Positions 1 through 61,346 of a stretch of DNA of 64,000 nucleotides are shown one piece after another. This stretch comes from a virus. Position numbers and translations under genes: made by a program. Below the pieces are notes generated by a model. That model was not told the DNA's origin. It saw nothing but the letters and a program-made list of their open reading frames with translations, and did not search any database. The stretch is taken from positions 1-64,000 of IMG/VR virus record IMGVR_UViG_3300023174_000077, one strand, 5' to 3'. Position 1 is the stretch's first letter; each line of letters begins with the position of its first letter.

Positions 1-26
1 ATCATTAATTTAGAAATGTTTATCAT
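1..26 (-). CDS. 5' end of a small cassette gene running off the window (MINISKLM...)
   Basis: ATG at 26 lies downstream of a reverse copy of the GGAGCTGAG...TTTAACA...TTTGC...TACTTTTA promoter block also seen at 3601, 3931 and 4581. Confidence 0.5.
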
Positions 27-225
27 AATTTTAATTTTTATAAAAGTAGTTTAATTTTTGGAATTGAGCAAATTTTAGATGTTAAAGTTTTGTGAAACTG
101 ATTGGCTCAGCTCCGCAGATGGTATTACTCACTCTGTGAGTCTATCGGAGATAGTAAATTGTGCACTATATGTAAAAAATAAATAGTGCACAATTTAATA
201 CCATTTCGGACCGTTAGAGTTTGAA

Positions 226-257
226 TAAAAAAAAAGCACCCAATGGGTGCTTTTTTT
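226..257. terminator. Bidirectional intrinsic terminator
   Basis: A-tract-GCACCCA-A-TGGGTGC-T-tract just after the stop of ORF 272-1762. Confidence 0.8.
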
Positions 258-271
258 CAAATATTAAAAAT

Positions 272-1762
272 TTAATGTTTTATTAGAATGTTTAACATAG
301 GTGAACTATCTGTATAACGATAAGCAAATATATTACTCGAATTAATAATAAATTTATCAACAAATTCGTTTTCAAAAGTTATTCGTTCCATATCAACTGA
401 ATAATCTATATTTAATAATTCATATAAAATATTTTTCACATGACTACAAATACTTAAGTTTTCAACACCCATTACAGATATTGTAAATAAAAAATATTTA
501 TCGGACAATAAAGTTTTTTGCTTATTAAATAAAGTTGTAATACGCTCTTTCTCTGAATTCCACCGACACATTAAATCAATATCCATAATAGGTTTTGGCT
601 GTGCCGCAATAATATCTCCAAATGTAATATTAATCTTTTCATCTATTAATTTTTTTGCCGTATTACATAATACATCAATATCAATTTCATGAGAATATAT
701 AAAATTATCACCTATGATATTTAATTTATGTAACATTTCGATATACCTTTCTGGTGTGGGGCCTAATAAAGTTAATATAGGTTTATTAACATTAGCAAGT
801 TTTGTATATAAATCTGTTTGCACATAATGTTTTCTTGGCGTATTAGAATATTCTTTTTTTAATTTAACATCATTCTTAATAGATAAAATTTGTTTATCTA
901 ATTTAGATATATCAAATTTTCTTATGTTTGCATCATAATTTAGCAATAAACGCTTTCTTTTTTCCGTTACTTGTTGAATCGAACGATGCCATTTTTTACA
1001 AAATTCATTATTATTAAAATCCTTAACAAGTATATCTAAATATTCCTCTTTTGACCATTTTTCACCAAACCTACTAGCAGTTAATGACGACTGATAATAT
1101 AATATTTTATGATGTACACCATGCCCAGTCTTATTTAGTATATTAGATATTTCTTTATATGTCATCCCCTCATCAAACAATTTTATAGCATGTTTTATTT
1201 CATTTAATGTCCAATGACAAGACGAAAATAATTCCTTAGCTTTTTTTGAATTACGCTTGGATTTTAAAGAAATATTTTCATTACGTTCCAAACGCTTTAT
1301 AGTGTTAATTTTATTCCTAACAATATTACCATTTATATTAAGCTCCCTTGTTATAGCTGGTATCGAAGCGTTAATTTCTAATAACCCTTTCAATTTGGCT
1401 TCAAGTTCATTAGTCCATTCAAAACGTGCTTTACTAGGTATGTCCAACCCTTTATATCTAACCAAATAAATACGTTTTTTAGTCAAAGCAGTTTTCGGTA
1501 AACTCATTAAATTAGAAATAGAACTAATTGATAAACCTTCTTTAAGATGTCCAATAAATGTGTTAACCAATTCTTCTGTCCATTCAACCGTAATATTGCC
1601 AAATTTTTCAACTCTAATGTTCCCTTGATTGATATGATATTGCTTTAAAATTAAAGTCTTTTCTGGTATTGATAAAATATCCGAAATATCTTTATAAGAC
1701 ATATTATTTTTACGATATTCTAAAAATAAATCTTCTGTTTCTTTTGTGAATACTTTTCCCAT
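272..1762 (-). CDS. Multi-HTH/Myb-like repeat DNA-binding protein with a C-terminal Rossmann/methyltransferase-like domain
   Basis: Repeated W(T/S)xEE...G.S...I...L units (WTEEL, WTNEL, WTLNE, WSKEE); C-terminal LTLLGP...SHEID...FGDI...DIDL pattern. Confidence 0.6.
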   Translation of the reverse strand: MGKVFTKETEDLFLEYRKNNMSYKDISDILSIPEKTLILKQYHINQGNIRVEKFGNITVEWTEELVNTFIGHLKEGLSISSISNLMSLPKTALTKKRIYLVRYKGLDIPSKARFEWTNELEAKLKGLLEINASIPAITRELNINGNIVRNKINTIKRLERNENISLKSKRNSKKAKELFSSCHWTLNEIKHAIKLFDEGMTYKEISNILNKTGHGVHHKILYYQSSLTASRFGEKWSKEEYLDILVKDFNNNEFCKKWHRSIQQVTEKRKRLLLNYDANIRKFDISKLDKQILSIKNDVKLKKEYSNTPRKHYVQTDLYTKLANVNKPILTLLGPTPERYIEMLHKLNIIGDNFIYSHEIDIDVLCNTAKKLIDEKINITFGDIIAAQPKPIMDIDLMCRWNSEKERITTLFNKQKTLLSDKYFLFTISVMGVENLSICSHVKNILYELLNIDYSVDMERITFENEFVDKFIINSSNIFAYRYTDSSPMLNILIKH

Positions 1763-2133
1763 AATATTACAACAAAAATAGCCTTTCTTTTTAGACTAAC
1801 CAAATTACAAATGTTAAAGTTAAGTTAATGATTTGCACTCAGACGCTTCGGAACATATAAAATTGTGCACGATATATTGTTTGGTTAAATACTCACTTCG
1901 TGAGATTCACGGAGTGAAAGCTCGCAAAGCGAGATTCGTTGAAAACGAATAGTGCACAATTTTATATGTCTATCTACCCGATTCGATTCACAAACAAATT
2001 AATTTTTTTAAATATAACTTTTATGAAATATTTATTTTTTTTTTATATAATGTAGAGCAAGATGCAGTGATAAATAATATATGCAAAAATAAAATATTAA
2101 CTAAATCTTTCAAAAAGAATTAATATATAATCA

Positions 2134-2313
2134 ATGAAAGATTATTTAATTGATATATTACCAGAACTTAAAATTGCATTAAATATGCAATTAAATTATA
2201 TTAATGATATTCCACACCTAACATTAATAAAAACTGATGTAGAAACAATTACAATCATAGGTGATACTGAAATAACAACTTACCTAAATAAATTAATTAA
2301 TTTTGAAATTTAA
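2134..2313 (+). CDS. Small hypothetical protein, 59 aa (MKDYLIDILPELK...), not in the ORF track
   Basis: Hand-translated open frame preceded by the TAATATATA late-type motif. Confidence 0.55.
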   Translation: MKDYLIDILPELKIALNMQLNYINDIPHLTLIKTDVETITIIGDTEITTYLNKLINFEI

Positions 2314-2349
2314 ATGTTAAAATTTATTTTAAAATTTTAACATTTTTTA

Positions 2350-2381
2350 TTTGGCTATTTCATTTACAATCAATACATTTG
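2350..2381 (+). promoter_or_regulatory. Bacteroidota sigma70-type promoter (-33 TTTG / -7 TAnnTTTG)
   Basis: TTTG at 2350 and TACATTTG at 2374. Similar -7 boxes near 2720, 5826, 6355, 7186, 8650 and 62495 (+) and near 1773, 35193 and 43121 (-). Confidence 0.7.
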
Positions 2382-2396
2382 ATAAAACATTTCAAA

Positions 2397-2660
2397 ATGG
2401 CCAAACAAAAGAAATTAAAACTTGATTTCAGAATTTTATCTGACGTTAAATGCATTTGTGGCTGCAATAGATACATTAAACAAAATGTGATTGATAGAAA
2501 CCCAACAGCCAGAAATTGCTATTTGAGCCACCTACTCGCTCACGGTAAAACACAGATATTCGCAGGTGCCTCAACTGATATAAGAACAGGTATAAGAACA
2601 CCTCGTTATATAAACATTCGTGAAACATTAAATCATATTAAAAGAAAACAACTTGTATAA
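2397..2660 (+). CDS. Small basic protein with a CxCGC motif
   Basis: ORF track; ATG 2397 follows the promoter; CICGC motif. Confidence 0.6.
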   Translation: MAKQKKLKLDFRILSDVKCICGCNRYIKQNVIDRNPTARNCYLSHLLAHGKTQIFAGASTDIRTGIRTPRYINIRETLNHIKRKQLV

Positions 2661-2744
2661 TAACATTTTGTAAAAAAACATTTTGTTGAAAATTGTTTTG
2701 TAGTTTCAAAACTTTTTTTTATCTTTGCAGTATAATAAGCAACA

Positions 2745-2945
2745 AGGACAAGAGCAGCAAATTAAATATTCAAACAATAAAATCGTAAATTTAAAAGTTA
2801 GCGTCTTGGGATAGCGCCGGTGGTACAATTAATTTAATAAAACCTTTTTCACACGCCACCGAAACACTAAAAATTGTCCTGCATAAAATTACTATACAGC
2901 AATTCTTAACAGGATACATTGGTTCAACTCCAAAAATAGTAATTT
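2745..2945 (+). ncRNA. Putative tRNA-like/Y-RNA-like structured RNA, two tandem units
   Basis: Promoter TATCTTTGCA at 2720 and no ORF. Stems AGGACAA/TTGTCCT and AAATTACTAT/ATAGTAATTT are each followed closely by CAGCAA. T-arm TTGG-TTCAACT-CCAA at 2919-2933; terminator at 3004-3041. Confidence 0.55.
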
Positions 2946-3003
2946 GATACTCATATTAAAACATTAAATTTGTTTAATGATTTTCATGTGTTTTTGGTTA
3001 CAC

Positions 3004-3041
3004 AAAAAAACTCTTATTGAGCAATCATTAAGAGTTTTTTA
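3004..3041 (+). terminator. Intrinsic terminator
   Basis: AAAAAAACTCTTA...TAAGAGTTTTTT inverted repeat. Confidence 0.7.
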
Positions 3042-3301
3042 TTTTTATACAATTCTCCGTTACCAAAAAGTGTAACAAAAATATGTAACACATCTCATAT
3101 TATATTTTTTTCTTATATATCATCATATTTCTTTTTTATTTTATATTTAGTATTTGGTATTAAATATAATTAGGCTATGATAACTATCAATTTCATTAAT
3201 CTGAAATAGATTTACAATTTCAAAAAAATTTATGAAAAAATAAAAAAAACTTATCCACTTAATCCAACAATTTATCCACACTCGAAAATCGAGCTATCAT
3301 A

Positions 3302-3490
3302 CATATTAAATTGTGCACGATTCGTTTTAAACGAAAGTATTTAAAATTATTTTATATAAATTATTTATATATGTTTCTGGTTAAAACCAAGAGATTTCTG
3401 GTTAAAATTCATATTAAATTGTGCACGATTCGTTTTAAACGAAAGTATTTAAAATTATTTTATATAAATTATTTATATATGTTTTTGGTT
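3302..3490 (+). repeat. Tandem duplication (~80 bp, period 108) starting with a palindrome left arm
   Basis: 3302-3382 is nearly identical to 3410-3490. Confidence 0.9.
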
Positions 3491-3600
3491 TTTTACATCC
3501 GCACACATCCATGAAACATATTAAATTGTGCACTATATAACCAATCATTTTCAGAAGGCATACCAAGCAAAGAAGTATTTAGTGAATAGTGCACAATTTT

Positions 3601-3689
3601 ATATGATCGCCGGAGCTGAGACAATTTCTTTAACATAACATTAACAAAATAAATTTTGCCACTAAAAAATAATTAACTACTTTTACACT
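3601..3689 (+). promoter_or_regulatory. Repeated early-promoter block ATGATCGCCGGAGCTGAG...[32 protein letters not shown]...TAyTTTTACA
   Basis: Near-identical copies at 3601-3689, 3929-4030 and 4581-4672, and a diverged reverse copy at ~40-120; each is directly upstream of a small ORF. Confidence 0.8.
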
Positions 3690-3863
3690 ATGATATTTAA
3701 TAATCCAATTCGTTCGGGAAAAGTAAGAAACGGTATCAATTGGTATCAGTATAAAAATGGAACTATTGTAATAGAAAAACAAAAATATATCTTTTATAGT
3801 ATAAAAGAAGCAATAGCTAAATATAGAAAACAATTTCCCAAATATAAAAAACTTTGTGTTTAA
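3690..3863 (+). CDS. Small basic protein, 57 aa (MIFNNPIRSGKVRNGINWYQY...), probably leaderless
   Basis: Hand-translated; ATG 4 nt after the -7 box; followed by a hairpin at 3878-3904. Confidence 0.65.
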   Translation: MIFNNPIRSGKVRNGINWYQYKNGTIVIEKQKYIFYSIKEAIAKYRKQFPKYKKLCV

Positions 3864-4044
3864 TGCCTCGATTTCGGAAGGCTTTCCTTTTCTAAGGAGA
3901 GCCTAAATAATATATAGTGCACAATTTTATATGATCGCAGGAGCTGAGATTCTACGAGCAATAAAATAGCTTTAACATAACCTTAACAAAATAAATTTTG
4001 CCGAACAATAATAATAACCTATTTTTACACAAAATTAAAAACTT

Positions 4045-4410
4045 ATGAAATATTTAGGTGTAGACATTTACAAAACTTCAACATATAATAGTTGTCCTCT
4101 AAATTATTCAGACAAATTTACCAAATTTGTTATTGAGTGTGAAAAAGGCAATTTATCAAAAGAAGATATTGAAGGTTACGCCATTATAAGAATTGTAAAG
4201 GGTAATTTGCCAAATACGCTAAAAGCGGTAATCATAGACCCAACTACAAATCAAAAATTAGTTTTAAATAAAGCCGTAGAAATGTTTGGCGGATATTACG
4301 TTGTAACATCAGATTCAAGGTTTAGCGAATTATGTAAAGCAATTTTAGGATTAGATATTCATTTTAGTTATCCAATCCCTTTACACGACAGATATGAATA
4401 TGTAAATTAA
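4045..4410 (+). CDS. Hypothetical phage protein (MFGGxY...SDSRF...IPLHDRYE)
   Basis: ORF track; flanked by the promoter block and a terminator. Confidence 0.8.
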   Translation: MKYLGVDIYKTSTYNSCPLNYSDKFTKFVIECEKGNLSKEDIEGYAIIRIVKGNLPNTLKAVIIDPTTNQKLVLNKAVEMFGGYYVVTSDSRFSELCKAILGLDIHFSYPIPLHDRYEYVN

Positions 4411-4429
4411 TATATTCTCACATATAGTG

Positions 4430-4461
4430 AAAAAAGTCGCTCATTTGAGCGACTTTTTTTT
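4430..4461 (+). terminator. Intrinsic terminator
   Basis: AAAAAAGTCGCTCA-TT-TGAGCGACTTTTTTT. Confidence 0.85.
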
Positions 4462-4689
4462 GTGCATTTCATGCACACGATTCATGAGGGCATCGATGGG
4501 AAATATTAAATTGTGCACTATTCGTTTTCAACGAATCTCACAAAGTGAGTATATGGTTATATAATATAGTGCACAATTTAATATGATCGCCGGAGCTGAG
4601 ATGATAAAATCGCTTTAACATAACCTTAACAAAATAAATTTTGCCAGCACATTATAATAAACTACTTTTACATCACAAATAAACAAATA

Positions 4690-4869
4690 ATGAATATAGA
4701 AACACACATAAAGAACATTAAACCAGGAGACACTATCCTATTCAATAACGTCCCAACAACCGTCACAGAAAAAAATATTAAATATGACAAATTTATAGGC
4801 AAAACTTTATTTGGTGACTCTTACAATTTAGGAACTAAACTCGTTATTAAAATCACCTCTGATAAATAA
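4690..4869 (+). CDS. Small phage protein, 59 aa (MNIETHIKNIKPGDTIL...LFGDSYNLG)
   Basis: Hand-translated; follows the promoter block. Confidence 0.7.
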   Translation: MNIETHIKNIKPGDTILFNNVPTTVTEKNIKYDKFIGKTLFGDSYNLGTKLVIKITSDK

Positions 4870-4880
4870 CATTTTGTAAT

Positions 4881-5198
4881 ATGTCACTCCACACAGAATA
4901 TATCAAAATAGAAAATATAGAAGTAAAATTCTCCATCCATTTCAATAGAAATAAAATCAATTATTTCACATATGAAAAAATTGATATAGGTTACCGTGTT
5001 TCAGCAACACCAGTCAAACGAACACAAGATAAAAATATTACAATCGAGGAATCCGTAGCTTTCAGTGGATTTGCAGATACCTTATTGATAGCCGAGAGGC
5101 AAAGCAAAAAAAGACTTGAAGAAGCAATCAAAATACTCAATGATAGAAAAGAAAAATATATAAATTGGTTTAAAGAAAAATATAATCTTAAAACTTAA
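4881..5198 (+). CDS. Hypothetical protein
   Basis: ORF track; terminator at 5232-5256. Confidence 0.75.
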   Translation: MSLHTEYIKIENIEVKFSIHFNRNKINYFTYEKIDIGYRVSATPVKRTQDKNITIEESVAFSGFADTLLIAERQSKKRLEEAIKILNDRKEKYINWFKEKYNLKT

Positions 5199-5640
5199 AC
5201 GCTGTTATTTGTTTTTTGTGACCATAAATAAAGACCCCTTTTCTAAGGGGTTTTTCTTTATGTTACACTTTTTTGTAACATTTTTAATATTATAATTTTT
5301 CTTAATACGTTATTATATTTTGGTTTTATCTTATATTTAATGCTTTATATTAAATATAATTAGGCTATAATAACTACTCGCTCAATCATTACACAATGTA
5401 TAAAAAAATTCTAAAAAACAAAATTTATTTTATCCACACGAACTGTAGCATCATATTAAATTGTGCACTATTCGTTTCCAACGAATCTCACTTCGTGAGT
5501 ATATATTTATAGTATATATAGTGCACAATTTAATATAAATTTTTACCAGAAATCTCTTGGTTTAACCAGAAACAAATAGTGCACAATTTAATATAATTTC
5601 GAAGCCTGTTTTTATGAGTTTTTGTTTTTTAAAAATTTTT

Positions 5641-6183
5641 AAAGCACTGTTTCAATACAGTGCTTTTTTTTATGCATTCACTCAAGCATCGAATCGACCT
5701 GAATCGACATCGAAAAGTAATATTAAATTGTGCACTATATAACTATATAATATAGTGCACAATTTAATATAATTTCTAAGCCTCTTTTTATGAGTTTTTG
5801 TTTTTTAGTTTCAAAAAAATATTCTTATCTTTGTTAAACACAAAAAACAAATATTATGAATTGTCAAAGATGTGATAATCAAGAAGCCAAAAGCTTAACT
5901 TGCTCACGCTTCAATACACAAATGATTTGCAACACTTGCGAACAAAAAGAAAAACAACACAAAGACTATCAAAAAGCGTATGATACTGAACTCAACGAAG
6001 TTAAAAAGGGCAACTATAACTTTGAAGGGATCGGTTTACCTGACGATTTAAAATAATTTATAAAAAATTAATATATTAAAAAAAAGCACTGTTTCAACAC
6101 AGTGCTTTTTTTTATGCATTCAACTCAAGCATCGAATCGACATGAATCGACATCGAAAATTAATATTAAATTGTGCACTATAT
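5641..6183 (+). repeat. ~100-bp direct repeats (terminator + TCGA-rich spacer + left arm) flanking gene 5856-6056
   Basis: 5641-5740 matches 6083-6183 (AAAGCACTGTTTCAAyACAGTGC...GCATCGAATCGAC...ATTAAATTGTGCACTATAT). Confidence 0.9.
5856..6056 (+). CDS. Small Zn-finger-like protein (CxxC...CxxC)
   Basis: CQRC and CNTC motifs; promoter TATCTTTG upstream and terminator downstream. Confidence 0.75.
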   Translation: MNCQRCDNQEAKSLTCSRFNTQMICNTCEQKEKQHKDYQKAYDTELNEVKKGNYNFEGIGLPDDLK

Positions 6184-6377
6184 GTTTTTAATTATATAGT
6201 GCACAATTTAATATGATCGCGTAGCTAGGGTCTAACATTAGCCCTCATTTGTATTAAACTCGTTTGTAATTTTTTCATTTGCGAAAAATAAATACAAAAA
6301 TTAATATATCTCAACTAACAAACTGATTTAACTTTTTCTTAACTTTTTCTTACCTATCTTTGTTAAAACAAAAAAAA

Positions 6378-6554
6378 ATGAAAACCATAACAATATTATT
6401 TTTCTTATTTGGACTATTCTCCACATATAAGATTAAAAAAGAATGTGGCGAATGGAAACATTTTAATATAAATGAAGTTTCTCTTATATATAATGTCGGA
6501 TTTATATTAGGTATTATAATATTGTTCGTACTGATAATTAAATACTTACCGTGA
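6378..6554 (+). CDS. Small two-TM membrane protein
   Basis: Two hydrophobic stretches; promoter at 6355; terminator at 6618-6643. Confidence 0.65.
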   Translation: MKTITILFFLFGLFSTYKIKKECGEWKHFNINEVSLIYNVGFILGIIILFVLIIKYLP

Positions 6555-7217
6555 GTCTCGCTTTACGAGTACAATAAAAATTTGTTATTTGTTATTTGTT
6601 TTTTAGTGTGATTATGTAGCGCCTTTTCTAAGGCGCTTTTTTTATATCCGTAACAAAATTCTGTTACACTTCCACTCCTCTCAACCTCTAACCAAATATT
6701 AAATTAATATTATATACTTTTATTCTTTTATAATTATCTTTTTTATAAAATCAAATATACAAAAGTTTCCACAGAAAAACATATTTTAGCCGTTCTAATA
6801 TAGTGCACGAATCCTTGCGTCGATCGATCATATTAAATTGTGCGCTATATAATTAAAAACATATACTCACTTTGTGAGATTCGTTGAAAACGAATAGCGC
6901 ACAATTTAATATGATTATCATGCCTCAGCGTTTCAAAAACATATTACAAAAATTTATATATGTCGTTGAACTAAACATTAACTTTTCTTTAACAATATAT
7001 TCACTAACTTAGTGTTTCACACATGTATATTCAAACAACATATAGCGCACAATTTACTATCACTCCGTGATAGAGTCACTTTGTGAGTAATATGACCGAT
7101 CATTTTTGCTATCTACTTTGAGCAAGTTCAAACAACATTAACTTTTCTTTAACAACTAACTATTGTTAGCCTCAATAAAACAAACTATCTTTGTGTAATC
7201 ACACAAATAAAAAATCT

Positions 7218-7562
7218 ATGACTATTCAATTCTCAATCGTTGATAAATCAACTGATACAAAAAATTTAGACGAAGTTTTACAAAAAATTAAAGCTAACTT
7301 CATATTCAATACTAAAGAATATATTAGCGACAAAGCCTTCGATACAATATGTGAAATAGCAAAATCAATCTTAATAAAAGATAAACAATTAAATCATAAC
7401 ACAAAACTAATTAGACGTATCTTAAAACACAACACTACTAATACAACTCCAGAAGATATAAAAGATACCGAACTTAAACTAAATACATTATTACAAAATA
7501 TACATTTAGAAACAGAAATCAAACAAGCTTTTAATATACAACTTAATCCTCATATGAACTAA
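7218..7562 (+). CDS. Hypothetical protein
   Basis: ORF track (ATG 7218 follows TATCTTTG); palindromic terminator at 7580-7620. Confidence 0.65.
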   Translation: MTIQFSIVDKSTDTKNLDEVLQKIKANFIFNTKEYISDKAFDTICEIAKSILIKDKQLNHNTKLIRRILKHNTTNTTPEDIKDTELKLNTLLQNIHLETEIKQAFNIQLNPHMN

Positions 7563-7862
7563 CATATAAATATTAGACATAGAAAAAAGGCCAAGCTATT
7601 ATAGCTTGGCCTTTTTTCTATATATGATACATAGCAAGAGTTCGAGCTGTAGCGATCATATTAAATTGTGCATTATTTAATTATATAACATTATTAAAGT
7701 TATGTTAAAATTAGGTATGGCGCATTTTGCGATATGTTAATATTATGTTAAATATAGGGTATATGGACTATGCTCGAAAAGTGCCCTTTAGAGGCTCCTG
7801 GTACTTTTTAGGTTTGTTTTTTCTTTTAAATCCCAAACTTATCCAAGAAACTTCTCCTATTG

Positions 7863-8110
7863 AAGGATTTTTTATCGTTCTAAATTTCCAAAAAAATTCC
7901 AAAAAAATTGTATAGTTAAATCTATTAAACTCTTTAAGGTGGATTTTTTATTGTTCCAAATATTTTCCAAATCAATTGAAAAAAATTTCAAAATAATCTA
8001 TATTTTATTCTATAGAAATCTATAAGGTGGATTTTTTATCGTTTTATAATTTTTGAAAAATCCTGTATACTTAAATCTATTGAAGTATATAAGGTGGATT
8101 TTTTATCGTG
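7863..8110 (+). repeat. Four iteron-like direct repeats AAGG(TGG)ATTTTTTATyGT; candidate replication origin
   Basis: Copies at 7863, 7936, 8024 and 8091 in an AT-rich non-coding gap. Confidence 0.7.
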
Positions 8111-8144
8111 TATGTTAAAGTCATGAGTTTTTTATTATGAATTA

Positions 8145-8535: not shown

Positions 8536-8660
8536 TAAAAAACCTCTCAATTTGAGAGGTTTTTTATTTTAAATATATCAAATTACTCCTCTAATTATTA
8601 TTTTAATTTATTATTAAAAAATATATTTGTTATATTTTATTTTTTTGTGTATATTTGTAT

Positions 8661-60467: not shown

Positions 60468-61346
60468 TTAGATGAGTTTATTTTTATTTAAGAAACCATA
60501 TTTTTTAAATAATTTATATGTTAATATTTTATACCACGGCAAATCACTAACAAAATTAATATTAAGCTTATCATAAGCATATTTAGCATTTTCCGAACAA
60601 TTGTCTATTTTACCAGACCATTTTATAACTTCCTGATTGATGTTGATATTTGATTCGACTAAGAATACCCCATTTCCATTTAATTCTGCTGAACGTCCTA
60701 CTAATATAGTATTATCAGATTGATTGGTATTGACGAAAACTTTAAAATTATTTAATGTGCCTACCTGAAATATTTTTTGTTCAAGTTGGAAGGTGTCACT
60801 GACTCTGCTTAGTGTTGTGTAACAAAAATTTGCCGAATCTTGAATTATTGGTAAAAATTTTGGACTTATTACTATAAATGTTGCAGCTCCAAGACGAGAA
60901 TTTACAGCTATAAGATTTGAAAGAATTGTAATTCTTGTTATTAAGCTTCTAAATTCTGTTGCATCATCTTTATTTGTATCATTTATTAAAATATCGGCAT
61001 CTCCTTTAATCCATTTTGTAAATTTAGTCCAAATGTTAGTTTGTTCTGTTCGTGTATTTTTATATGATTTATCATTTTTATCTGCTAATTCTACATATTT
61101 ATCATATAATTGTTGTGATAAATTATTAATTAAAATTGATTTACTAGATTTAACAAAAGTATATTGCTCACATTTAAAAGTTTTTTTATTAATACCTAAA
61201 CTAATAGTTGAATAAGAAGTAGTTTCATCTTTTGTGATTGATTGATCAATATAACTGATTTGAAATTCCGGTTTATCTGTTTTATAAATAGCTGCTGTAT
61301 TTAAAAATGACGAATTTAGATAATTTGTTTCATTATTTTTATTCAT
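60468..61346 (-). CDS. Divergent major-capsid (gp23/gp24)-like fragment
   Basis: SRLGAATFIVISP...VGTLN.FKVFVN...ILVGR resembles the gp23 C-terminal half. Confidence 0.5.
   Translation of the reverse strand: MNKNNETNYLNSSFLNTAAIYKTDKPEFQISYIDQSITKDETTSYSTISLGINKKTFKCEQYTFVKSSKSILINNLSQQLYDKYVELADKNDKSYKNTRTEQTNIWTKFTKWIKGDADILINDTNKDDATEFRSLITRITILSNLIAVNSRLGAATFIVISPKFLPIIQDSANFCYTTLSRVSDTFQLEQKIFQVGTLNNFKVFVNTNQSDNTILVGRSAELNGNGVFLVESNININQEVIKWSGKIDNCSENAKYAYDKLNINFVSDLPWYKILTYKLFKKYGFLNKNKLI

Follow-up and report, generated by a model that had tools for sequence, protein, structure and literature searches.

What is the function of a short DNA word that recurs 22 times among the small genes at one end of a phage genome? 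The question is raised by the left end of the IMG/VR virus record IMGVR_UViG_3300023174_000077, which is 122,094 bp long and classed as linear; the window studied here is its first 64 kb. The word, which we call the arm (ATAGTGCACAATTTAATAT), is 19 nt long and is present in 11 copies per orientation at 151-7683 of the record. A preliminary description of the window likened the resulting array to an integron and proposed a site-specific or hairpin-based capture of genes. We consider the arm most likely to be a protein-binding site, because it is sharply bounded, conserved in sequence, asymmetric and also found singly. The fuller reading, which we hold with about even confidence, is that the arm is the control site of a phage regulator by which early cassettes are tagged, with a 496-aa protein encoded in the array as the candidate reader.

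Sequence and distribution of the arm

On the plus strand the forward (F) arm reads ATATTAAATTGTGCACTAT (n = 11), and the remaining copies are its reverse complement (R, n = 11). When the 64-kb window was searched with the pattern TTAAATTGTGCACTAT at up to three mismatches, 30 matches were obtained, compared with 3.41 ± 1.79 in 100 shuffles (maximum 9). Among these, 27 were at 154-7680, and five were shadow matches of the palindromic GTGCAC core, giving 22 distinct arms; each of the three matches outside the array had three mismatches. At up to two mismatches, all 22 matches in the whole record were at 154-7676 and the other 114 kb contained none, while a reversed control pattern gave no forward match and one reverse match over the whole record. 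The record has 21 GTGCAC sites, 19 of which are within 1-7700, and in a 12-mer census of the record the arm was by far the commonest repeated word family. All 22 arms are intergenic and lie in one promoter-dense region of 7.7 kb; the preliminary description had named arms scattered genome-wide without relation to gene boundaries as evidence against its proposal.

The F arms start at 151, 1855, 3303, 3411, 3518, 4503, 5453, 5720, 6163, 6830 and 7658, and the R arms at 183, 1949, 3586, 3914, 4566, 5518, 5576, 5752, 6196, 6894 and 7042. They form eight interrupted F..R palindromes (P1-P8), in which the arms are 32, 94, 68, 63, 65, 32, 33 and 64 nt apart from start to start, and six solo arms (F3303, F3411, R3914, R5576, R7042 and F7658). 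The preliminary count of about 22 copies agreed with this, but not every copy belongs to a palindrome as had been described. With the 22 copies co-oriented, a block of 19-20 positions (ATAGTGCACAATTTAATAT, often followed by G) had an information content of 1.1-2.9 bits, which fell to near 0 within a few nt on both sides. Since the arm sequence is conserved and 6 of the 22 arms are solo, the unit is the arm rather than the hairpin. In seven of the eight pairs the arms are separated by 3.0-3.1, 6.0-6.2 or 8.95 helical turns, a regularity of little weight because the pairs are partly paralogous.

In IMG/VR the exact arm had two single matches and no multi-copy occurrence, and a 10+10 palindrome pattern found three loci, which were chance matches or an unrelated 31-nt tandem repeat in a giant-virus metagenome-assembled genome (MAG). 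Among 185,579 bacterial and archaeal species, each represented by one genome, there were 13 single matches and no locus with more than one copy; at two of the 13 (L025 and L017), no other array feature was nearby. The tandem repeat of the giant-virus MAG contig (L012, 575-1000) has the perfect palindrome AAATTGTGCACAATTT in about half of its units, and apart from this AAATTGTGCACAATTT core it is unrelated to the arm.

The same distribution bears on the idea that the palindromes are non-autonomous transposons, similar to MITEs (miniature transposable elements with inverted repeats), which spread within the region. The palindromes do look the part, being intergenic, 51-113 bp long and bounded by terminal inverted repeats of 19-21 nt around variable interiors, and MITEs have reportedly been seen in phage genomes. 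We nevertheless consider this idea scarcely credible. No target-site duplication was seen when the flanks of the eight palindromes were inspected by eye, and there is no dispersal, with 22 of 22 copies in a single 7.7-kb region, none in the other 114 kb and no multi-copy occurrence in bacterial genomes or IMG/VR. No transposase family was found in a search made for Y1 only. Two further identities were rejected: replication iterons or a pac site, for which the copies are too dispersed and alternate with genes, and a restriction-site decoy, which had no support.

Position of the arms relative to promoters and terminators

Terminator-like sites numbered 12 in the array against 1.5 expected, with hairpins folding at -10 to -30 kcal/mol. 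The Bacteroidota-type promoter pattern TTTG-N19/20-TAnnTTT[G/A] ended 4-24 nt before the open reading frame (ORF) starts at 2397, 3690, 4045, 4690, 7218 and 1762(-), and also before the truncated gene at the contig start. It matched nine times in the first 8 kb compared with about 2.3 times per 8 kb elsewhere. Its box TAnnTTTG is the sigma-A -7 box of flavobacteria (PMC9723704, in excerpt). In addition, TATCTTTG boxes were noticed by eye upstream of the ORFs at 5856 and 6378, and one promoter family (D7) has three direct copies, 75-84% identical, and one inverted copy. A scan for sigma70-type promoters was uninformative (68 found, 70.5 expected). Several units share the order terminator, spacer, palindrome, promoter, one or more small ORFs, terminator, as the preliminary description had stated; the TCGA-rich spacer that it included in this order is clear mainly in two duplicated units. 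The arms themselves are located outside the predicted transcripts, past the terminators and 50-102 nt upstream of the -33 boxes.

The arms have companions in these gaps. The mini-palindrome TTCGTT-N3-AACGAA has six copies, found in the array only, and all six abut the inner end of an arm. All five copies of CTCAC-N3-GTGAG are within the array, in addition to which there are TCAC-N3-GTGA variants and a single CTCGC-N3-GCGAG. These mini-palindromes combine constant half-sites with variable 3-nt centres, as in operators of dimeric proteins. A GATCGC(C/A)GGAGCTGAG box follows three R arms, and its complement is found to the left of P1. In each of the two duplicated spacers, GAATCGAC occurs twice, 10 nt apart. 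Taken together, a bounded asymmetric word, its single copies, its place in untranscribed gaps, its operator-like neighbours and its confinement are most likely the properties of a protein recognition site, and we infer from this sequence pattern that a protein binds there.

A different meaning of the conserved block would be that each arm is itself a promoter. Within the F-orientation arm, TAAATTGT is invariant in 20 of the 22 arms and matches the TAnnTTGY -7 box of an alternative Flavobacterium promoter class; this box (motif SM5) was described in F. psychrophilum, where mutagenesis supported its function (PMC9723704, in excerpt). Paired arms would then fire into the palindrome, with a predicted start at the inner arm edge just before the mini-hairpins with which the leaders would begin, and the tandem F arms 3303, 3411 and 3518 all aim at rightward genes. 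By our estimate a 19-mer of this composition would contain such a match with a chance of about 0.03, and several motifs had been tried. No conserved -33 element is present upstream, and paired arms would be convergent promoters only 32-94 bp apart. Transcription from the solo R arms 3914 and 7042 would run antisense into the upstream gene or enter empty DNA, the 11:11 orientation shows no bias to gene direction, and no copy is found upstream of any gene in the other 114 kb. We judge this promoter function unlikely. For general middle or late promoters, the lack of copies before genes in the other 114 kb led to rejection.

Folding of the palindromes

The single-strand folds of the eight palindromes were strong, with z-scores of -3.8 to -10.3. 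The folded arms pair continuously and have no bulges, and single mismatches occur only in P1 and P3. Mini-hairpins with triloops are found inside the palindrome loops. In two palindromes the paired arms have matching variants: both arms of P8 have a GCGC variant and both arms of P2 have an AAAATT variant. These observations would suit palindromes that act in folded form, either as RNA hairpins for RNase III-type processing or stabilisation, or as cruciforms or single-stranded DNA hairpins in replication or recombination.

We regard such a role as very unlikely. Six arms are solo, and the sequence is conserved far beyond the needs of pairing. The palindromes are located after strong terminators and before promoters, and no Rfam family reached the gathering score in the array. 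The same variants also occur in unpaired or neighbouring arms, namely in the solo arm 7042 next to P8 and in R3586 and R3914, which fits local duplication; the arm sequences therefore point to local duplication as an explanation of the shared variants that is as good as pairing.

Comparison with integron and Xer sites

The integron comparison of the preliminary description has a sound starting point, since imperfect palindromes between short single-gene units in an array are common to both. The hallmarks of integrons are an IntI/attI platform, promoterless cassettes expressed from one promoter (Pc) and attC sites with RYYYAAC/GTTRRRY core sites; attC hairpins have extrahelical bases, an unpaired central spacer and a variable terminal structure, and conserve structure over sequence (PMC5027507, in excerpt). 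In contrast, no intI/attI platform was found in the 122 kb of the record. No arm (0 of 22) has RYYYAAC or GTTRRRY within 8 nt, positions 1-8000 contain a single RYYYAAC..GTTRRRY pair, inside the 496-aa gene, and the R' and R'' boxes and extrahelical bases are absent from the folds. Here it is the sequence that is conserved, the sites are inverted pairs and not one attC per cassette, and promoters and terminators belong to the cassettes themselves; in integrons the cassettes lack promoters and depend on one Pc (PMC5027507, in excerpt).

Site-specific recombination, whether integron-like or Xer/pdif-like, could still be carried out by a host recombinase or by one whose gene lies in the part of the genome not covered by the record. 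In its favour, copies of one site in inverse orientation border each cassette, the arms coincide with some mosaic joints, and the recombinase gene could lie elsewhere because the record is a fragment (22% complete by the CheckV estimate, with an identical protein on a 239,272-bp contig). For the same reason it is only weak evidence that PF00589, PF00239 and PF01797 (tyrosine recombinase, serine recombinase and HUH) had no match in the 122,094-bp record; the control of the PF00589 search gave matches in 14 of 14 genomes. The preliminary remark that no integrase is visible thus holds for PF00589 even across the full 122 kb.

A dif/Xer site has two 11-bp recombinase arms around a 6-bp centre. At this locus a single block of 19-20 nt is conserved with no second conserved arm beside it, which is not an 11-6-11 two-arm site, and the arms were rejected as dif-like sites for this reason. 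Finally, the one pair of units that differ by the presence of a gene, described below, has its junctions away from the arms. With the missing recombinase match, R-boxes and bulges, the solo arms and the self-expressed cassettes, these results do not support the integron-like capture, site-specific or hairpin-based, that had been proposed, and we think any dedicated recombination of this kind most improbable.

Recombination at the repeats

Rearrangement of the array is nevertheless suggested by several comparisons. P4 and P5 are 88% identical over 66 nt with unrelated flanks on both sides, and P2 and P8 have interiors that run in the opposite direction to those of P4 and P5 (inverted matches of P8, 95% and 89%). 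Contigs from four metagenome runs of four studies were compared with the array at 85% likeness; the pieces were short, of low depth and from mixed communities. Many joints with sides of 20-24 nt in AT-rich DNA were set aside as probable noise, and only joints with sides of at least 30 nt or with an arm involved were used, as weak evidence. In run X9, a contig of depth 16 links position 155 to position 1962 across opposite strands within the arm (side 33, 14 shared letters). By its sequence, this join is P2 with a flipped interior, its left arm carrying the flank of P1. Contigs of run X12 have two F arms in succession with 27 nt between them, as well as other arm-adjacent joins. Loose ends of metagenome contigs at 5780, 2031, 2668 and 7734 are intergenic and not arm-precise.

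The clearest indel is internal to the array. The units 5576-5770 and 5752-6214 have a common left part of 56 nt (96% identical) and a common right part of 132 nt (92% identical), and in the middle they differ by 9 nt in the former and 275 nt, comprising a promoter and a 66-aa ORF, in the latter. One junction of this empty and filled pair is 37 nt beyond the R arm and the other is at the terminator foot, and neither is in an arm. Breakpoints at the arms in relatives had been proposed as a check of cassette exchange: the short X9 and X12 contigs do join at or near arms, while the internal pair joins elsewhere. The mosaic joins at arms fit homologous or template-switch recombination at repeats, as proposed for the promoter(early)-stem-loop (PeSL) elements of T4-type phages, without pointing to a dedicated enzyme.

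PeSL elements were already named in the preliminary description as a comparable layout, and this likeness held up. In T4-type phages, PeSLs are repeated terminator/promoter junctions in a hyperplastic region, directly upstream of small ORFan-type early genes, with host-type promoters, and the repeats coincide with indels and rearrangements (PMC2839356, PMC4122927, both in excerpt). Much of this recurs here: composites of host-type promoter and stem-loop terminator separate small, unrelated, self-expressed genes within one region, rearrangements may coincide with the repeats in some short contigs, and the record contains a Gp23-family sequence. The array differs in having a separate asymmetric motif of 19 nt between terminator and promoter, mostly as inverted pairs with mini-palindromes, and in promoters of the Bacteroidota -33/-7 type and not of the sigma70 type. 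The comparison is apt for layout and plasticity.

It could then be asked whether the arms are mainly seams of PeSL-type recombination, kept for the shuffling of early genes and the formation of mini-circles and without a regulatory role of their own. The P4/P5 likeness between unrelated flanks, the inverted interiors of P2 and P8, and the X9 and X12 joins in, between and next to arms are what such seams would leave behind. The small ORFs are also of mixed origin. They are 57-121 aa long and mutually unrelated, and three match PHROG families of unknown function. One of them, the 59-aa ORF at 4690-4869, matches phrog_3623 (3.9e-20) and has tblastn matches in 413 GenBank phage records, mostly of enterobacterial phages; it is 60-66% identical to hypothetical genes in 30 of these, including Felixounavirus-type Salmonella and Escherichia phages, and less than 60% identical in the other 383. 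Judged by these matches it appears to be a widely travelled small gene. Recombination alone, on the other hand, leaves unexplained why a block of 19 nt is near-identical in 22 copies while its flanks vary. PeSL repeats consist of the promoter and terminator, the junctions of the clearest indel are outside the arms, and the contig evidence consists of short metagenomic pieces of low depth at 85% likeness, with the pieces from runs X2 and X6 identical to the window. We therefore consider a role as seams alone possible, though rather unlikely.

A candidate reader of the arm

The only large gene of the array, at 272-1762 on the minus strand, is located between P1 and P2 and encodes the 496-aa protein, which was characterised by ORF, profile and fold searches. 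In the structure model, five consecutive three-helix helix-turn-helix (HTH) units are found at about residues 7-45, 63-103, 118-160, 186-227 and 238-274, mostly with predicted local distance difference test (pLDDT) values of 75-90. Pfam matches to Sigma70_r4, GcrA, HTH_23 and related families were below the cut-off, and the protein matches phrog_323, annotated as transcriptional regulator, at 8e-11. The C-terminal domain of 200 aa (272-880) was modelled at a pLDDT of 91.6. Its best PDB matches in a fold search were all class I S-adenosylmethionine (SAM)-dependent methyltransferases (E about 1e-8, TM 0.4-0.53), while Pfam and PDB sequence searches with the domain gave nothing significant and there is no Pfam model for it. 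Proteins of about 200 aa that consist of this domain alone also form a family.

A profile of the family of the whole protein, HTH repeats included, retrieved 276 proteins at E ≤ 1e-10. No tblastn match was found in GenBank phages, and nothing was found in IMG/VR for the 496-aa protein, its family alignment or the neighbouring 973-aa protein; the promoter word had one chance match there, in coding DNA. Two distant relatives of the 496-aa protein (38-41% identity) were present on metagenome contigs (L014 and L015), both without arms.

According to the model, a monomer with its five HTH units in tandem could cover about 19-20 bp, as would suit an asymmetric site, and this protein with its HTH units and methyltransferase fold is the best candidate for the reader of the arms. 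A precedent for such reading is provided by the stoperator repressors of mycobacteriophages, in which a monomer with several DNA-binding domains reads an asymmetric site at many intergenic places (PMC9283540, in excerpt). As in the cluster A stoperators of the L5 gp71 type, more than 20 copies of one asymmetric site are found in short intergenic gaps (PMC9283540, in excerpt), and the multi-domain monomeric reader has its mirror in the five-HTH protein beside a 19-nt asymmetric site. Stoperators differ in being 13-mers spread genome-wide and oriented with transcription, whereas the arms are within 7.7 kb, 11:11 in orientation and mostly paired (PMC9283540, in excerpt). Stoperators are also sites inside transcription units whose orientation follows transcription; the arms lie outside the predicted transcripts, with 11 F and 11 R among rightward genes, and there is no protein homology.

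The methyltransferase fold allows a bolder version, in which the 496-aa protein would read the arm as a monomer and methylate DNA at or beside it, either at GTGCAC or at the GATC/TCGA enriched next to the arms. It is unlikely, in our view, that either this version holds or an undiscovered recombinase, encoded in the part of the genome that was not sequenced, acts at the arms.

Proposed control of the early cassettes

In the reading that we favour, the arm as a regulator-binding word, the early region would be built of short expression cassettes, in each of which a host-type promoter drives one or two small genes up to an intrinsic terminator. The arm would be a sequence-specific protein site in the untranscribed gap between a terminator and the next promoter, usually as an inverted pair, and the adjoining 6-3-6 or 5-3-5 palindromes could bind further dimeric factors. 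A phage-made regulator on the arms would switch all early cassettes together, either off or boosted. As arms, promoters and terminators recur within a few kb, ordinary homologous or template-switch recombination would flip palindrome interiors and swap, duplicate or delete cassettes. Cassette plasticity would then be incidental, as at PeSLs, rather than the work of a dedicated integron-like capture.

Several observations weigh against this proposal. The distance from arm to -33 box varies (50, 50, 55, 64, 78 and 102 nt), unlike that of classical operators, and the F arms beside bare terminators face no obvious promoter. The spacer between paired arms differs by 3-5 nt in relatives, which weakens the argument from helical phase, and the variants shared within the P8 and P2 pairs could mean selection for pairing. 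Finally, no such array of repeats surrounds the homologue on L014 (41% identical), and hence the link between the protein and the motif is only positional.

Anatomy of the array

The gene at 272-1762 and the truncated gene at the contig start point left, and all ORFs from 2134 to 7562 point right, in agreement with the divergence at about 1.9-2 kb reported earlier. At the contig edge (1-125, minus strand) there is a D7-family promoter at 72-41, followed by the first codons of the gene that runs off the contig start; positions 41-125 are 71% identical to 3601-3685 in inverted orientation. Three rightward promoters belong to the same family as this leftward one, so the array probably extends beyond the contig on this side. 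The extent of 124-7672 given before needs correction on the left, where the array touches the contig start.

P1 (151-201, z -6.7) consists of the F arm 151-169 and the R arm 183-201 around an AT spacer of 13 nt, with a CTCAC-N3-GTGAG mini-palindrome just outside it at 128-140. The Bacteroidota-type promoter of the 496-aa gene, TTTG-N20-TATTTTTG (1773-1804, minus strand), is 50 nt from the F arm 1855. P2 (1855-1967, z -9.3) is the divergence point, with arms at 1855-1873 and 1949-1967 and four mini-palindromes inside (1892-1904, 1907-1917, 1921-1933 and 1935-1949). To its right, on the plus strand, are small ORFs of 59 aa (2134-2313) and 87 aa (2397-2660), separated by an AT hairpin at 2312-2345 and a promoter at 2350-2381.

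A strong Bacteroidota-type promoter at 2697-2727 and a terminator at about 3005-3040 then enclose about 270 nt without an ORF of at least 50 aa, and no Rfam family was found at threshold; this unit (2697-3045) is possibly a non-coding RNA. A 116-nt repeat is present at 3071-3186, 5261-5376 and about 6650-6780, its first two copies being 76% identical. Each time it is located between a bidirectional terminator and an F arm, and it has GTAACA/TGTTAC inverted words. The first copy has a leftward promoter-like match at 3190-3161, and the copies are possibly leftward non-coding units.

Two solo F arms at 3303-3321 and 3411-3429 (plus strand) each abut a TTCGTT-N3-AACGAA mini-palindrome. They belong to a 108-bp tandem duplication at 3299-3490 of the window, 98% identical, in which each copy holds one solo F arm and one such palindrome; this looks like a recent local duplication inside the array. 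P3 (3518-3604, z -3.8) has arms at 3518-3536 and 3586-3604 and is followed by a rightward cassette (3605-3863) with a GATCGCCGGAGCTGAG box, a D7-family promoter at 3655-3685 and a 57-aa ORF at 3690-3863. The next rightward cassette (3914-4460) is headed by the solo R arm 3914-3932 and contains a D7-family promoter at 3997-4027, a 121-aa ORF at 4045-4410 and a terminator at about 4429-4460.

P4 (4503-4584, z -9.4; arms 4503-4521 and 4566-4584) and P5 (5453-5536, z -9.9; arms 5453-5471 and 5518-5536) each have two mini-palindromes, at 4521-4535 and 4537-4549 in P4 and at 5471-5485 and 5487-5499 in P5. Between them is a rightward cassette (4585-5258) with a D7-family promoter at 4640-4670, the 59-aa ORF of phrog_3623 (4690-4869), a 105-aa ORF (4881-5198) and a terminator at 5230-5255. 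After P5 comes an extra solo R arm in direct orientation (5576-5594). It heads the empty unit (5576-5740, plus strand), a paralogue of the filled one at 5752-6183, in which empty unit the arm is followed by a 37-nt leader, 9 nt, a terminator at 5641-5666, a spacer with two copies of GAATCGAC and the F arm of P6. P6 (5720-5770, z -8.8) has arms at 5720-5738 and 5752-5770. The filled cassette behind it (5771-6114, plus strand) has the leader, a TATCTTTG promoter box, a Cys-rich ORF of 66 aa at 5856-6056 (phrog_27033) and a terminator at about 6083-6112.

P7 (6163-6214, z -8.2; arms 6163-6181 and 6196-6214) precedes a rightward cassette (6215-6645) with a hydrophobic ORF of 58 aa at 6378-6554 and a terminator at 6618-6637. 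P8 (6830-6912, z -10.3) has arms at 6830-6848 and 6894-6912, both of the GCGC variant, and interior mini-palindromes at 6866-6878 and 6880-6894. The last rightward cassette (7042-7623) is headed by the solo R arm 7042-7060 and has two TCAC-N3-GTGA mini-palindromes (7060-7070 and 7076-7086), a promoter at 7163-7193, a 114-aa ORF at 7218-7562 and a terminator at 7577-7623. The array ends on the right with a solo F arm at 7658-7676 (plus strand), in which GCAT replaces GCAC.

To the right of this last arm, a non-coding gap of 500 nt contains three copies of about 81 nt (7891-8126, 68-73% identical), each ending in AAGGTGGATTTTTTAT, which look like iterons. A terminator hairpin built on AAAAAACCTCTCA and its complement is found at record positions 8537-8568, 96802-96830 and 117754-117785.

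Source and genome context

Because the product of the ORF at 272-1762 is present, identical, on a 239,272-bp contig of a protein collection, the true genome is much larger than the record. PF07068 (the Gp23 capsid family) matched twice in the record, at 60696-60977 (1.3e-11, above the cut-off) and at 72103-72261. Freshwater metagenome runs of two other studies (X2 and X6) contained pieces identical to parts of the array, with no differences in the 16 pieces listed. Positions 1-8000 of the window had no DNA match in GenBank phages, and no tRNA was found. On this sequence evidence, the 7.7-kb stretch is best explained as the hyperplastic early region of a large, probably T4-type phage whose host would be a freshwater member of the Bacteroidota.

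Implications

If the methylation version were true, the array would be an epigenetically switched bank of early cassettes, under a phage-encoded, site-targeted DNA methylation switch; if the recombinase version were true, it would be a genuine phage cassette-exchange system. If the arms are the docking sites of a master regulator, as we favour, one protein and one 19-nt word would control a bank of host-takeover genes. This would apply to a lineage of giant freshwater Bacteroidota phages without a cultured member and would place a Bacteroidota example beside the PeSL and stoperator paradigms. Such control would further help to explain how hyperplastic early regions can be both co-regulated and recombinogenic.

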